DNA of 64,000 nt from Candidatus Omnitrophota bacterium (lineage in GTDB: Bacteria > Omnitrophota > Omnitrophia > Omnitrophales > Aquincolibacteriaceae): the NCBI GenBank assembly GCA_035352955.1, contig DAOPYQ010000001.1, positions 37,536 to 101,535 on the forward strand, in the 5' to 3' direction. Position numbers: made by a program. Shown here in pieces: positions 12,001 to 21,000 of the stretch (position 1 is the stretch's first letter; each line of letters begins with the position of its first letter).

Positions 12001-15000
12001 ATCTTATCGGGTTATTTCGGAATGTGGGGAGCTAGGCGGAGTTTTTGGGCGATTTTGTAATTTTCGAGGTGATTTTTTTGATAACGGGGATTGGGAACCC
12101 GCTCATGCGTCGAATATGAGAATTGTTCGATGTGCTCATTCCGGGCGATCCGATTTACTGGAGATAGGGGATATCTTTGATATTCAAGGGTGTGTTGCTA
12201 TGTGGAATAAGAAATTATTTGATCAGTTCGGCCTTCTTCCCATTGGAGTGCTTGCGGAAGATGCTGTTTTGGGAGGACGGGCATTGTTTTCTGGCCTGGG
12301 GATAGGGTTTACTTCTTCCCGCATGGTGTTGCGCAGGATACATGAGACAAATGTTTGCGCTGGAAAAAAAATTTCGGTAGCTTCTCGCGATATTTTTTAT
12401 TCGAGGGCTGTAGTCCATCATGAGTTGTTGGATTTTAGGAGGAGGAATCCGAATCTGTATTCAGCAGAGGATTGGCGTCGCATGGTAGGCGTCTTTGAGA
12501 CGGCGCTTTTTATATTGATTGTTGCTGTCCGCAAGGATGGATTGGGTTGGGTTCGTAGCGTTCTGGTTTTTATGATGGGATTTAAGTTAGGAGAGCCGTG
12601 GTCCGCCGTTCGATTTTTGAAAGCGATGTGTCGAAAATTTTTTATTGGACAGAGGTCTGGGAAATAACGGGAGATGTATTCATTTGGTTACCTTAACGAA
12701 AAAAAATAGCGTAGCTGAACTAGGGGATGAGAGGAAGTGTGGGCGCGACATTCTTCGTTATGAGTGGCACCTCTGCTTGTTTTTTTCTATAGTCGCTTTT
12801 TTTATTGCGAGTCTCTTGATGACGGGGTGGCCTTTAGGAATTTTGCCTGATGTCCGTTATCCGTACCTCTATAAGGGAGAAGGAGTGGCCGTTTTGGCCC
12901 TTATTCAGAGAATGATGGAAGGGGCTTGGATTTTCTTTAATAACCGCATAGGATTTCCATTTGGGGGCAATTCTCTCGATTTTCCCATACCGGATACCGG
13001 TAGTCTGTTTATTCTTAAAACCCTCGGAAGGCTCTTGGGATCTTCCCAAGCGGCAATGAATTTATTTTTTTTAATCAGCTTTCCAGTTACATTTGTATGC
13101 AGTTATGTGTTTTTACGCATTGTGGGTCTTTGCCGTTCTTTTGCGACGGCGGCGGGGTTTTTATTTGTATTTCTGCCCTTTCATTTTCAGCGAATCGTTC
13201 ATCTTTTCTATACATGGTACTTTGTAATACCCATTTATTTTTATTTTGGATTCTACCTTTTTTGTGGGCGAAAATTATGCTCGCAGCGAGTCAAGTTTAG
13301 TTTTAAAACACTTGGAAACGCTGTTGTTTTGTTGATTTTGACATTGTTTGGGGTTTACTACTCTTTTTTCGGATGTTTGATTTTGTTTGTAAGTGCTGTT
13401 GCTGGAGCCATAGCAAACAAATCGCGACGATGTCTTATTTTGGGATTCGTCGCTATCGCCATCATCTTTCTCGGCGTTCTGGCAAATGTGACGCCCTTTC
13501 TCCTCCATAGGTTTGCGGCAGGCGATAATGTCGAGGCGGTACAACGAACCGTTGGCGAGTCAGAGATATACGGTCTCAAGCTCGTTCAAATGCTCTTGCC
13601 CCATTCGGAACATCGCGTTGGGTGTTTGAACAAGATAACCAAGAACTATCGGATTGGTTTTCCTCTCGTGAACGAAAATGAAATGGCGGCGCTTGGTGTT
13701 TTTGGGGCGATTGGTTTTTTGTCCTTATTGTGCCTAGCGTTTGTTTCCATCTGCGGAGTACCGGTCGATTCTCGTCTTGCTTTCTTCAGCATCACCTCTA
13801 TTTGCTTGTTTTTTCTAGCGACAATAGGGGGAGGCGCATCTCTGTTTGCCATGGTGGTCTCTCCTCTGCTGCGTGGATGGAATCGCGTTAGTGTTTTTAT
13901 TGGCTTTGGGGCCATTGCGAGCTTGTTTCTGATTATTCAGCTCAGTCTGAATCGGTTTTTTGAGGAGAAACAAGTGAAGAAAATGATATTGCCTATTGCA
14001 ATTGGATTATGCGCTTTGGGTCTGTGGGATCAGACTCGCCCTGCGCCCATTTTGGCTAACGATTTGATTCGAAAGTCTTTTGAAAGTGATTCCTCCTTCA
14101 TTAAAAGTATTGAAATGATGGTTCCGCCAAATTCGGCGATTTATCAACTGCCGTATATGGCCTCCCCAGAGGTTCCTGATATGAATCAGCTGAATAGCTT
14201 CGATTTGTTTATCGGGTTTTTGCATTCGAAACAGCTGCATTGGAGTTATGGTGGTATAAAGGGGCGTGTCGGCGATCTTTTTTTTCGTGCTCTAGCGCAA
14301 CAGCCGATGCGAAAACAAGTTGAGGTGATTACAAGGTTAGGATTTGCCGGTATTTATATTGACCGTCGAGGGTTCGCCGATCATGGACGAGGGCTGGAGG
14401 AGCAGTTACGGGAGATCTTTGGTGAGGGCTCGCAGTTGCAGAGCGTTGATGGTAACCTGGCCTTTATTAAATTGCCGCATCTTGAAAAGCCTTTGGCCGA
14501 AGGGGTGAGTCCGCAGGAGGTTATGAGGAGAGCGGGTTTTTGGGTGGACTTCAATGGTAAACGTTATCCAGCATCTTTGGCAGAAGGGATCGATTTCCGG
14601 CAGAAAAGTTTTCCTGCCTATGTTAAAGAAGTCAAGGGGATGTCGGACGCTGAACCGTGGGGGTGCTGGTCGGACGCTGATCGAGGCGAGTCCGTTGAAA
14701 TAATATTTTTCAAACCGTTACCGCCTGTTTTTATTCTGAAACTTCGAGCGCGGGCATTTGGTCCCAACGCTGGCGCAACTGTTAAAGTACAAGTTGGCGA
14801 TTTCGTTGAGAATGTTATTCTTCAGGAAGGCTTCGAAGAGAAGCAAGTCAGCGTGGCGACGAAGAAGCTTGCATCCAAAATTAAGATTTCACCACCGTTC
14901 CCCCAAAGTCCACTTGCTCTGGGAATGAATTATGATCGCAGAAGGCTTGGGATTGGTTTGGAACGTATTCGAATTGAGGAGCCATAGGAGAGAGGGAGTA

Positions 15001-18000: not shown

Positions 18001-21000
18001 CGTCGATCATTTCGGGGTAGATCAGAAGATAAACGGGAGATTTTATTTTTTTGCTATGCGTGTAATTCAGCAGGCTGTCTTTTTGGGAACTCGGCCATGA
18101 GGCAGGCAACTCGCTTTCGGCGCGATCTCGGTCGAGCGGCACAATTTTCATGATCAGTTCCACGGCAGCGTCCGTTTCCGTCCCGCATATTTTCAGATAT
18201 TCGAGGGCTTGATTGCCGCTTCCGGCCAACATCCGGAAGATCCCCGCGGCTTGGCGTTCGTCCCGGCTCATCAAAGCCCGGGCGATCCAGAAATTCTCAA
18301 TACAAGCCTGGGTACCGCCATCCATCACGCTTCGTCTTTCCGCGATGCCGTTGATCAAATAACCCGGCGACCACGAACTGAACACAATGGCATTTTTCGG
18401 AGTTTTAGTTTTCAGAAAGGTCAGGACTTTGAACCATCGTTTGTCCATGAGTCCGGTGAATTGTTCGTTGGCGGTGCGGGCGTTCACGAGAGAGACGGGG
18501 AGGACGCACAGCGTCAGCAGGAGGAACGCTACGGCTCCTCGAAATTTTTCGGGGAGCCGTATCAGGGCTTTTTCCCGGAGGAAGTTTCTGAACCATTCCA
18601 TTCCGAACACGGAAAGCGGGATCAGCCAGGGGGTCAGGATAAAGATGTACCGTTTCCCCTGCATGGAAAGGATCAGGGGCGGGAGGCAAACGAAAGTGGT
18701 GATAAGCCATAAACGGAAACGAACCTCGTTCTTCTTTTTAAGAAAGTTCGCCCCGGCCGCCAAGAGACCCAACGCGGAACAAAAAAGCATCCCCGGGCCG
18801 ATCAGAAAAAACCAGTCGGCGGCTGACGGCGGATTGGTTTCATTGATCGTACGGAGGAGTGTGGGCAGGAAATCTTCGCCGACCTTTCCGATCTTCAAAA
18901 AAAAGGACAAGTTGCTGGAAAAGGTTTGTCCCATTGCACGGGACGACGCAAGTGTCAGACAGTAAAGAGTGAGGATGACTCCGTAACCCAACAAATATTT
19001 GACATGCTGGCCCTTGTTTTTGTCTTTCTTGAAATGCTCAAAGACGATCAGCACCAAGGAGCCGGCCCCGACCAGCGCGACCATGTAGATCCAGCCTTGC
19101 CAAAACATCGCGAAAAGACCCGCGAACGTTCCTCCCGCAAGACCGAACCAAACCGCTTTTCGAGGAGTTCGGATCGCCCAAAGGAGGGATCCGAGAATGA
19201 CCGAAGAAAAGAACAGGATGTAGGGATCGGTATCATACCAGCCGTAGTTGGACCTGAGGATGACCGCGGGCAATAGAAGAAAAACCGTTGCGCCGAGCCA
19301 GATTATGGAAAAATCCGTTCCGAGCGCGAAAAGTAAGAATAAAATGCCGGCGGTTATCAAAAGGGTCAACAGGACCGGAACATAGGCCGCGGCGCGCGTG
19401 AGCGAGATTTTTTTGTCGAAGGTCCGTAGCAACCGGTAAGCCGCAGCGCCCACATAAGGATGCCACGTTTGGAGATCCCAGGCTCCATTGGGTGCGCATC
19501 TCAGGGGGTTGTAGAATGTTCCGTCTTCGCGCGCGGGGCCGAGCGCCCCTTTTTCAAGGACGTTTTTTGTAAGTGAAAGATAGTAATAACAATCGGCGTC
19601 CCGCAGGTATTCTTTGGAGTAGCGGTCCATAAATTCATTATCGAGCTGTTTCTGGGATAAGGCCACTGCGGTGCGGAATTCCGAATTGTCGGAAGCGATC
19701 ACTTGCTCCACCCGCGCTCGAAGGAGCTCCTCTTTTTTTTCTGCAGGAAGATTCTCCGGAAGGGTGGCCGCTATTTCCGGGGACCTTGCAAGATTGAAAC
19801 GGACGATCGCTTCGGCGGTTTTCATGTTTTTCTCTTTGATTGAACGGGGAAGGTCCTTCCATAGAGGGAGGCGGAAATAAAAGGCCAGAAGGAGAGTGAT
19901 TAGCAGGAAGAAGACGATTTTTTTCATTTTCTTTTGAGACTCACGGAAAAATGCATTCGATGGCGGCTCTTCTCAAGATTTTTAAAAAATAATTTTTGGA
20001 TCCCCGGAAAAACTTTCGGAACGCGTGTCGTCAAACTTTTCGGCAATGCTGCAACGTTTTGGGATTATACCCTGAGGTTTCGCGTAAGCGGCTGAAAATA
20101 TTTCAATAATCAAAGGCGCCCCCTTGTGCGAGAACGGCCCGTTTTTAGTGATTGACGATACCCGCGAAAGCCGCTACACTTCGTCGTCTTATTCCTCTAT
20201 ACAAATTCCAGGACTGGTCTTAATTAGATGGAAAAGCTTTCCGTAGAACAACTTAAGGCGAAATCGAAGCTGATCCGCCGTCATATCATTGAAATGACGG
20301 GCGCGGCCGCTTCCGGCCACCCCGGCGGTTCCCTTTCCTCCGTTGAAATTCTCACGGCCCTCTATTTTAATCTTATGGAATTCAACCCCCAGGATCCCCA
20401 GTGGCCTGACCGTGATCGGCTCATCATGAGCAAGGGGCACGGGTCTCCCGCGCTTTACGCGGCGATGGCCGAATCCGGATATTTCGATCCCAAGACCCTT
20501 ATCAGTTTTCGCAAGCTCGGCAGCCCTCTTCAGGGTCATCCGGACCGCAAGAAGTTACCCGGCGTGGAGGCCTCGACCGGTTCTCTGGGGCAGGGCCTAT
20601 CGTTCGGTGTCGGGGTTTCGATGGCGCGCCGTCTGGATAAAAAAGATTATTATACGTATGTGATCACGAGCGACGGCGAGATGAACGAAGGCCAGACCTG
20701 GGAAGCCGCCGCGATGGCCGCGCACCACAAAGTCGACCACCTGATCGCGATCCTTGATGACAACAAATACCAGCTGGATTCCTCGACGCAAGAGATCTGC
20801 GACATGGAGCCTCTGACCGAAAAGTGGAAGGCCTTTCACTGGCACGTGCAGGAGATCGACGGGCACGACCTGAAGGCCATCTTGAACGCGGTCGAAAAAG
20901 CCCAAAAAGTGAAGGACCAGCCGGCGATCATCATTGCGCACACGGTCAAAGGCAAGGGCGTTTCTTTCATGGAAGGGAACAACGCTTTCCACGGGGTCGC

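Follow-up and report, generated by a model that had tools for sequence, protein, structure and literature searches.

The window analysed here, a stretch of 64,000 nucleotides from a Candidatus Omnitrophota genome (assembly GCA_035352955.1, contig DAOPYQ010000001.1, positions 37,536–101,535), encodes two large membrane glycosyltransferases of the GT-C superfamily, of 839 and 780 amino acids, the latter adjoined by a family 2 glycosyltransferase (GT2) resembling GtrB. I consider, with a probability of about 0.6, that these belong to two independent systems: a Gtr-type glycan-modification module, formed by the 780-residue protein and the GT2, and a catalytically competent STT3 variant with altered acceptor recognition, the 839-residue protein. 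All three open reading frames (ORFs) are found exactly where the initial annotation of the window had located them (Table 1). It had tentatively attributed them to one joint system of the oligosaccharyltransferase (OST) type, a view at odds with the different histories of the two GT-Cs, one of which lies in a repeat-bracketed, low-GC cassette, and the other on the conserved backbone.

The 839-residue protein is a genuine GT-C of the STT3/PglB/AglB family (GT66). Both Pfam models of the family exceed their gathering cut-offs, with 61.2 bits (E = 1.7e-16, cut-off 24.5) for PF02516, the STT3 N-terminal region, and 25.5 bits (E = 2e-5, cut-off 23) for PF21436, the STT3/PglB/AglB core. A profile built from 12 members of its own clade (the STT3-like clade) retrieved STT3A (E = 1.2e-19) and AglB (E = 1.4e-8) among the PDB sequences. 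A phmmer search of the same sequences also matched STT3A, and aligned SWSPGYLINGIAERRSVMDGGT to the STT3A block containing WWDYG, independently reproducing the alignment proposed initially for the C-terminal soluble domain. The similarity to STT3 is far beyond chance. The AlphaFold2 (AF2) model, with a predicted local distance difference test (pLDDT) value of 76.6 and a predicted template modelling score (pTM) of 0.69, possesses 13 transmembrane (TM) helices, rather than the eleven or so first counted, and a globular, periplasmic C-terminal domain of mixed α/β structure. Its best Foldseek match is PglB 6gxc (E = 5.5e-17, TMt 0.66), and this structure leads the list together with PglB 3rce and 5ogl (E ∼1e-16, TMt 0.65–0.67), with STT3A, AglB and yeast Stt3 next. 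A structure of the PglB C-terminal domain alone (3aag) matches as well (E = 3e-7), and ArnT, DPY19 and AftA score far worse. The NCBI model for this gene (P0001, 805 amino acids, 100% identical) starts 34 codons downstream and drops the first TM helix (window 19826–19927); the ATG at 19927 is the better start, as it includes this helix and the clade-conserved residues F18 and R19.

The defining motifs of the STT3 family are two DXD motifs, TIXE or SVSE, WWDYG, DGGK and DK/MI (PMC8342417). In all solved OSTs the WWDYG loop hydrogen-bonds the Ser/Thr at position +2 of the sequon, forming the Ser/Thr pocket, while TIXE contacts the acceptor peptide backbone in a β-sheet-like manner, and the role of DGGK is merely presumed (PMC8342417). 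In the 839-residue protein, both DXD motifs and TIXE are identified, the former starting with the DxDxYY-type first loop that had been recognized from the outset, where external loop 1 (EL1) carries an extra helical insert of ∼90 residues ahead of the catalytic Asp. Across the clade, the invariant positions are D112, G229-WYD232-T-D234-PY, E363, R426, W519, P521, G522, R531 and D536-G537, with R426 placed opposite the conserved Arg of STT3A in a hidden Markov model alignment. The WWDYG position itself reads SWSPG, and the replacement of WWD by SWS, as initially described, is upheld. In the region of the DK/MI motif (residues ∼631–658, PxYLLxYxD...W.FKKA), no invariant Lys or Ile is seen by eye at an alignable position. 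The metal-binding and catalytic residues are thus intact and the acceptor loop is rewritten, and with the catalytic set kept and WWDYG altered, a change in acceptor specificity is the natural reading for this protein.

The altered motif is a family trait and not a one-off. A profile search covering 1.84 billion representatives returned 4296 matches to the STT3-like clade, 1215 of them at E ≤ 1e-30; the best 150 matches listed all have E < 1e-168, and most are full length. I tallied the WWDYG equivalent in 158 sequences (more than 150 clusters at 50% identity), and found WWPPGH in 69, WWPPGY in 37, WWSPGH in 19, WWCPGH in 6 and SWSPGY in 3. An Asp is present at the third motif position in three of the 158 sequences among the tallied motifs, and the Tyr is replaced by an invariant Pro, for a consensus of WW[P/S]PG[H/Y]. 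The altered motif defines a large clade, of which the SWSPGY form is a minor part. For the second DXD block, the strict pattern GWYD[TNSD]DP is matched in 98 of the 158 sequences, and YDTDPY is found in all but one of 56 aligned locus proteins.

Species genomes in GTDB were scanned with clade-specific peptide patterns, which cannot show absence from other phyla, and 53 loci were identified. Most are labelled Omnitrophota or Omnitrophica (32), with 11 named 'uncultured bacterium' and 10 assigned to uncultured Planctomycetia/Planctomycetales, the last of which interleave with Omnitrophota sequences in a neighbour-joining tree. Among the cluster members of 10 representatives, the single name given is Omnitrophota, which is consistent but weak. 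So far, the clade has been found almost only in this phylum. A literature search returned no paper combining Omnitrophota with oligosaccharyltransferases, and two preprints on Omnitrophota giant genes mention loci resembling the type II secretion system (T2SS) and not STT3.

The 780-residue protein is not an STT3, and belongs to a separate and widespread GT-C family, DUF7024. The C-terminal DUF7024 domain is its sole Pfam match (E = 9.5e-35) and its NCBIfam match is limited to the OpgB C-terminus; no match to PF02516 or PF21436 was found at E ≤ 1, nor to STT3 models in NCBIfam or to PDB sequences. Comparison of its family to the STT3-like clade with hhalign gave a probability of 10% (E = 0.003), confined to EL1–EL2, as kinship within the GT-C superfamily predicts, and without aligning HWSYGG to WWDYG. 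Its structural model, which is confident (pLDDT 89.7), shows a GT-C fold with yeast Stt3 and AglB among its structural neighbours, and is no closer to STT3 than to other GT-C families. Profile searches and structural models, two of the checks proposed in the initial annotation, bear out the STT3 assignment for the longer protein and go against it for the shorter one, to which the refuting condition named there, the lack of any STT3 match, applies. The motifs that had suggested an STT3-like architecture for the latter do exist (PDVRYPYLY, residues 68–76, and HWSYGG, residues 532–537), but in the model the position equivalent to WWDYG, after the first periplasmic β-strand, is held by an invariant QLPYMxxPE (residues 501–509). 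HWSYGG lies ∼30 residues beyond it, and is not the counterpart it was taken for. Homologues ∼40% identical are found in Yersinia, Burkholderia, Acidovorax, Lysobacter and Regiella, the family is large, and one sequence (P0013) is 100% identical to the window protein; a literature search for DUF7024 found no papers.

The adjacent GT2 was proposed to be a GtrB/DPM1-like polyprenyl-phosphate glycosyltransferase, which its matches to PgfS (E = 3.2e-86) and ArnC (E = 8.1e-50), both below the NCBIfam equivalog cut-offs, and its hydrophobic C-terminus corroborate. It begins 12 bases after the GT-C gene, which is itself preceded by another GT2 and by FdtB, FdtC and two FdtA-type genes, and it is 32–33% identical to the GT2 preceding the DUF7024 GT-C in Yersinia and Burkholderia. 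In the cassettes of Yersinia enterocolitica and Burkholderia ubonensis, the DUF7024 GT-C is the last gene, in the order ddhA-like cytidylyltransferase, ddhB-like dehydratase, ddhC-like DegT enzyme, thiamine pyrophosphate (TPP) enzyme or split transketolase-like pair, epimerase/reductase, GtrA, GtrB-like GT2, DUF7024. The sugar pathway of these cassettes may resemble yersiniose biosynthesis. The succession GtrA-GT2-GT-C is the hallmark layout of three-component periplasmic glycosylation (PMC11127046). The window possesses both a polyprenyl-phosphate sugar synthase and an adjacent GT-C transferase, and the arrangement that had been likened to archaeal AglJ/AglB is thus better described as a DUF7024 GT-C with a GtrB-like GT2 for three-component glycan modification.

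The module sits in a cassette of ∼8 kb (from ∼8.25 to 16.4 kb), between two direct repeats of 978 bp that share 94.2% identity and correspond to two GDSL/SGNH esterase genes, and it is the lowest-GC part of the window (0.44–0.45, compared to 0.52–0.60 elsewhere). At 8397–8750, the scar of a deletion in a ddhA-ddhB-ddhC block joins a DdhA-like to a DdhC-like part, respectively 79% and 76% identical to the B. ubonensis cassette genes, which implies that the window cassette descends from the Yersinia/Burkholderia type and was later remodelled. Taken together, the low GC content, the direct repeats and the scar indicate a remodelled, probably horizontally acquired cassette. Recombination between the repeats would excise the Fdt, GT2, DUF7024 and GtrB genes as a block. 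The FdtA/WxcM-C cupin genes are doubled (window 10705–11545), with two tandem, overlapping copies encoding 146 and 136 amino acids instead of one. The split transketolase genes at 20228–22080 were considered as a part of a branched-sugar pathway, by comparison to the Burkholderia locus L060, but this was rejected as unproven, given an identity of 30–39%, their backbone GC content and their synteny with the locus of a relative, P0004.

I then turn to the genomic context of the STT3-like clade. Neighbouring ORFs of 58 loci were clustered and the recurrent clusters annotated, with counts given for 54 distinct loci. At least three T2SS or type IV pilus families are found within the flanks of 31 of these, in two gene arrangements. 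Loci below this number mostly have truncated flanks, L016 and L024 being the only ones that lack T2SS genes despite sizeable flanks to either side. In the first arrangement, atpD is followed by GspE, GspF, GspG (which passes its NCBIfam equivalog cut-off), two pseudopilins with N-methylation signature, PilM-PilN, a PilO/GspM-like protein and a TPR protein, then by a divergent DUF2304 gene with a 235-residue GT2, the STT3-like gene, a small unknown protein, GspK, a Peptidase_S41 C-terminal processing protease, an unknown protein and a PMT_2-like membrane protein. In the second, the S41 gene and then the STT3-like gene are convergent with the whole T2SS operon. The STT3-like gene and the T2SS genes remain neighbours in both arrangements, which speaks with moderate strength for the enzyme and the T2SS being functionally linked. 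No secretin gene is among the annotated recurrent clusters of loci L001–L057. The operon is exemplified in this set by L001 (896–15293), with the STT3-like gene, the DUF2304-GT2 pair, Peptidase_S41 and the PMT_2-like gene embedded in it.

A small GT2 occurs within three genes of the STT3-like gene in 24 of the 54 loci. The 235-residue GT2 best matches PpgS (E = 2.7e-24), AglJ (E = 1.9e-21) and dolichyl-phosphate (Dol-P) hexose transferase, that is, DPM1/AglJ/PpgS-like enzymes, and DUF2304 is the family to which the small partner protein of mycobacterial PpgS belongs. By analogy, the pair looks like a polyprenyl-monophosphate sugar synthase. In one subgroup, genes for BacA, a PIG-L deacetylase, a GNAT protein and a trypsin-like protease are found upstream of the STT3-like gene instead.

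The window protein differs from this general picture. With three relatives (P0002, P0003 and P0004), it forms a subclade whose members are ∼55% identical to each other and ∼30% to the remaining clade, and whose motifs read SWSPGY, AWSPGY and, in P0004, AWDPGY. There are no T2SS genes near any of these four loci. In the window, where tblastn detects none, the F-type ATP synthase operon that precedes them elsewhere is present (35153–41340, minus strand), on the same strand as the STT3-like gene and ∼15 kb from it, with unrelated housekeeping genes of the opposite strand between the two. In most relatives the T2SS operon occupies this very interval, directly after atpD and before the STT3-like gene. 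On the transketolase side, the P0004 locus shares the gene order of the window (split transketolase, GGT, NUDIX, ArsC-like, Bax1-I, ABC transporter, DUF4340 and ThyA), and on the other side it encodes DUF2304 with a small GT2, a carbamoyltransferase, a GDSL esterase and RgpF. Upstream of P0002 lies a divergent GT2, and downstream, on its own strand, come a family 4 glycosyltransferase (GT4), another glycosyltransferase, a methyltransferase, a GT2 and a DegT protein, as well as a weak match to a Wzx-type flippase on the opposite strand. P0003 directly adjoins a GT4 that ends a cluster with radical-SAM enzymes, a TPP enzyme, a GT2 and a DUF7024 GT-C. The STT3-like gene of the subclade therefore keeps a conserved backbone position at the border of variable glycan islands, as would be expected for a conserved transferase serving a variable glycan. 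At the edge of the P0002 locus (L061, 22123–22511), 10 kb downstream of the STT3-like gene, begins a giant ORF of 9097 amino acids; giant proteins of Omnitrophota are reported to be encoded close to T2SS-like loci (10.1101/2023.11.21.568195).

In the first of the two proposed systems, the GtrB/PgfS-like GT2 would charge undecaprenyl phosphate with a sugar taken from a nucleotide donor, this lipid-linked sugar would be flipped across the membrane, and the DUF7024 GT-C, guided by its domain resembling a carbohydrate-binding module (CBM), would add a single sugar as a side branch of a surface polysaccharide. The CBM-like C-terminal domain and the cassette context both suggest such a single addition to a periplasmic glycan. 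By analogy to Yersinia and Burkholderia, where rare-deoxysugar genes directly precede GtrA-GT2-DUF7024, the sugar is probably a 3-acetamido-3,6-dideoxyhexose made by the adjacent Fdt-type genes, and the DUF7024 family is apparently specialised for rare deoxysugars.

In the second system, the STT3-like enzyme would pass a sugar or glycan from its lipid carrier to an acceptor in the periplasm, and would not read the canonical N-X-S/T sequon in the manner of PglB, AglB and STT3. At the level of the family, the context favours a polyprenyl-phosphate-linked donor, started by a DPM1/AglJ/PpgS-like GT2, and a protein acceptor tied to the T2SS-like pseudopilus system. The 839-residue protein is most likely active in transferring a lipid-linked glycan and recognises its acceptor in a non-canonical way. 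A bolder and rather doubtful proposal is that the WW[P/S]PG[H/Y] clade is a new class of bacterial OSTs that has lost N-X-S/T(+2) recognition and glycosylates T2SS-like pseudopilins or cargo, with a polyprenyl-monophosphate donor supplied by the AglJ/PpgS-like GT2 and DUF2304, the SWSPGY subclade having been re-targeted to a variable surface glycan island. If true, this class would be the bacterial counterpart of archaeal AglB, on which the glycosylation of pilins and archaellins depends, but would follow another acceptor code.

A number of points weigh against the two-system interpretation. The donors and acceptors of both enzymes are inferred from context only, and the AF2 model of the 839-residue protein has low confidence in the EL5 region and at residues 131–152. 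The T2SS link could reflect inherited synteny rather than function, as the window subclade and L016 keep the enzyme with no T2SS genes nearby. There is no conserved N-X-S/T column in the neighbouring pseudopilins, but this is neutral for a non-canonical enzyme. For the Gtr-type module, no GtrA ORF is found in the gap at 15998–16371, and tblastn with Yersinia and Burkholderia GtrA gave no match at E ≤ 1e-3 in window 1–23000, the part that was searched; GtrA may be encoded elsewhere. Finally, the window is devoid of the small GT2 and DUF2304 pair, so that the GtrB-like GT2 could conceivably supply both GT-Cs, which is the sole surviving part of the single-system idea.

In its full form, this idea, with both large proteins as STT3/AglB-like OSTs that transfer glycans to protein together with the DPM1/GtrB-like GT2, in the style of AglJ/AglB, is very improbable. 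It is largely refuted for the 780-residue protein, even though both proteins share the GT-C fold, the structural neighbours and weak EL1–EL2 similarity described above are in its favour, and the P0003 contig has a DUF7024 GT-C within 10 kb of the STT3-like gene. That the STT3-like protein is a canonical N-OST, with Ser520 or its neighbours replacing the lost hydrogen bond of the Asp and N-X-S/T still being read, is unlikely, in spite of several features it would account for. These are the conservation of TIXE, which holds the sequon backbone, and of the second Trp; the hydrogen-bonding Ser at the Asp position in the window variant, and the Asp retained in P0004; and the pgl-like set of glycosyltransferase genes after P0002, with the Wzx-type match on the opposite strand. 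However, in most members a Pro takes the place of the Asp, and the Tyr has given way to an invariant Pro (WWPPG), so that the hydrogen-bond partner is lost and the Ser/Thr-pocket loop reshaped, and in the window subclade the first Trp is gone as well. The unclear DK/MI motif and the change of DGGK to DGGT speak in the same direction.

The loss of the Asp that binds the peptide Ser/Thr could also be understood if the acceptor were not a protein, the enzyme ligating an island-encoded glycan to the envelope (on polysaccharide, lipid A-core or peptidoglycan) like ArnT, AftA or WaaL. The position of the subclade gene at the edge of variable glycan islands, and the BacA and PIG-L deacetylase genes adjoining it in one subgroup, would fit this. 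I nevertheless regard it as improbable: TIXE is conserved, the strongest neighbours across the family encode pseudopilus components and a C-terminal processing protease rather than polysaccharide export functions, and no member of the STT3 family is known to have a non-protein acceptor. Very improbable as well is a pseudo-enzyme that has lost its activity and serves as a structural component or chaperone, for example in the envelope or the T2SS-like machine. Pseudo-enzymes normally lose metal-binding and catalytic residues first, and D112, D232, D234, E363 and R426 are invariant here across sequences only 25–30% identical overall. The hallmark motif is indeed lost, and the gene does lie inside a secretion-machine operon in most genomes, but the recurrent adjacent polyprenyl-phosphate GT2 suggests that a donor is supplied. 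An active STT3-like transferase with rewritten acceptor recognition, separate from a Gtr-type module, remains the reading I favour.

The N-OSTs PglB (Campylobacter), AglB (Archaea) and STT3 (Eukarya) share with the 839-residue protein the Pfam families, the 13-TM GT-C fold, the PglB-type periplasmic core, both DXD motifs, the TIXE Glu and the Arg. They differ from it by the WWDYG motif and by DGGK (DGGT here), with no clear DK or MI motif seen in the 839-residue protein, by the absence of the EL1 insert, and by their occurrence in other phyla; the clade context is a T2SS-like operon or the edge of a glycan island, and not a pgl locus. The characterised bacterial STT3-type OSTs that are known come mainly from Campylobacterota, with a few from Desulfobacterota, and all possess WWDYG. 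With archaeal AglB and its AglJ/AglK-type Dol-P glycosyltransferases, which N-glycosylate type IV pilins and archaellins, the likeness is at the clade level only, in the pairing with a DPM1-like GT2 that charges a polyprenyl monophosphate and the association with a type IV filament. The clade differs in having a bacterial GspG-type pseudopilus and an altered WWD, and the association is purely genomic, and absent in the window.

A functional analogue of the family-level hypothesis is TfpW, the GT-C that glycosylates the pilin of group IV pili in Pseudomonas aeruginosa. Its gene adjoins pilA, and the enzyme draws on a lipid-monophosphate sugar with the help of a GtrA-like protein (10.1101/2020.04.19.049825). 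As in the STT3-like clade, the GT-C is encoded in a type IV filament gene cluster; in contrast, TfpW is not of the STT3 family, but Emb/Aft-like with a TPR domain, and O-glycosylates Thr/Ser with D-arabinofuranose. The mycobacterial arabinofuranosyltransferases AftA and AftD are more remote, with ∼10% sequence identity, no profile-level relationship, and a different organism and glycan. Gtr systems (GtrA/GtrB/Gtr*, Klebsiella Gml and Citrobacter pentofuranose) share the pair of an undecaprenyl-phosphate-sugar synthase and a GT-C with the window, where the GT-C is instead an uncharacterised DUF7024 protein with a CBM-like C-terminus, no GtrA is adjacent, the GT-C precedes the GT2, and a rare deoxy-amino sugar, not glucose, is predicted. 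With this pair, the three-component repertoire gains an uncharacterised and widespread GT-C family, which Yersinia and Burkholderia also possess. A large, phylum-associated clade that keeps the catalytic machinery with a rewritten acceptor loop would be a natural experiment on acceptor choice by OSTs, and glycoengineering might draw on it for enzymes of new site specificity. There is also a hint that Omnitrophota, which are ultra-small and possibly predatory, attach glycans to their surface or to their secretion or pilus apparatus.

Table 1. Coordinates of the features identified in the window.
Feature	Coordinates	Strand	Evidence or remark
STT3/PglB/AglB-family GT-C, divergent, 839 aa, 13 TM helices and periplasmic domain	17408–19927	-	Pfam, Foldseek, clade profile
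EL1 first DXD, D110-A-D112-CYYY (residues 110–116)	19580–19600	-	D112 invariant; aligned to STT3A EFDPYFNY, also to the AglB EL1 Asp
EL2 second DXD, GWYD232-T-D234-PY	19220–19243	-	Invariant block; aligned to STT3A GSYDNEGI (D-N-E)
EL5 TIXE, T360-I-N-E363	18839–18850	-	E363 invariant, clade [TS][VI]xE; aligned to fungal STT3 SVSE
SWSPGY (residues 518–523), altered WWDYG equivalent	18359–18376	-	W519, P521, G522 clade-invariant
DGGT, DGGK equivalent, Lys to Thr	18311–18322	-	D536, G537 invariant; T539 in at least 90%
DUF7024-family GT-C, 780 aa: N-terminal GT-C membrane domain, periplasmic α/β domain, C-terminal CBM-like β-sandwich	12645–14987	+	
GT2 with two C-terminal TM helices, GtrB/PgfS/ArnC-like polyprenyl-phosphate glycosyltransferase	15000–15998	+	PF00535 5e-30; NCBIfam
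GT2 glycosyltransferase, cytoplasmic	11630–12667	+	PF00535 5e-18
NDP-3-acetamido-3,6-dideoxyhexose gene set, whole	8751–11545	+	Pfam
DegT/FdtB-like aminotransferase	8751–9884	+	PF01041 4.9e-98
Hexapeptide acetyltransferase (FdtC-type)	10009–10587	+	PF00132 2.7e-22
Two FdtA/WxcM-C isomerase-like cupins	10705–11145, 11135–11545	+	PF05523 2e-45, 1e-49
Deletion scar, DdhA-like glucose-1-P cytidylyltransferase residues 1–75 joined to DdhC-like DegT residues ∼207–231	8397–8750	+	
Direct repeat copy 1, GDSL/SGNH esterase gene 7156–8247	7278–8253	+	Pfam GDSL
Direct repeat copy 2, GDSL/SGNH esterase gene 16371–17351, convergent with the STT3-like gene	16382–17357	+	
Split transketolase genes, divergent from the STT3-like gene, conserved backbone neighbour	20228–22080	+	Pfam; adjacency as in P0004 locus

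The flanking genes are confirmed, namely the two FdtA genes, the DegT aminotransferase, the hexapeptide acetyltransferase, GT2, GT4 and SGNH/GDSL genes. A scan for promoters and terminators around the STT3-like gene gave results at chance level. To the left of the cassette, the window encodes an 842-residue protein with two GT4 (Glycos_transf_1) domains (1098–3626), and a 715-residue protein with an AlgX-like SGNH domain (3662–5809), and the glycan island probably extends past the left window edge. The ORF at 28–1101, with no Pfam match, contains an internal tandem repeat (523–716, 131 bp, 87% identical, offset by 63 bp). Further to the right, a gene for a 163-residue TPR protein (32361–32852) is tightly flanked by a 90-bp inverted repeat, 89% identical (32264–32352 and 32853–32942), and the segment between the two copies may be invertible or mobile.

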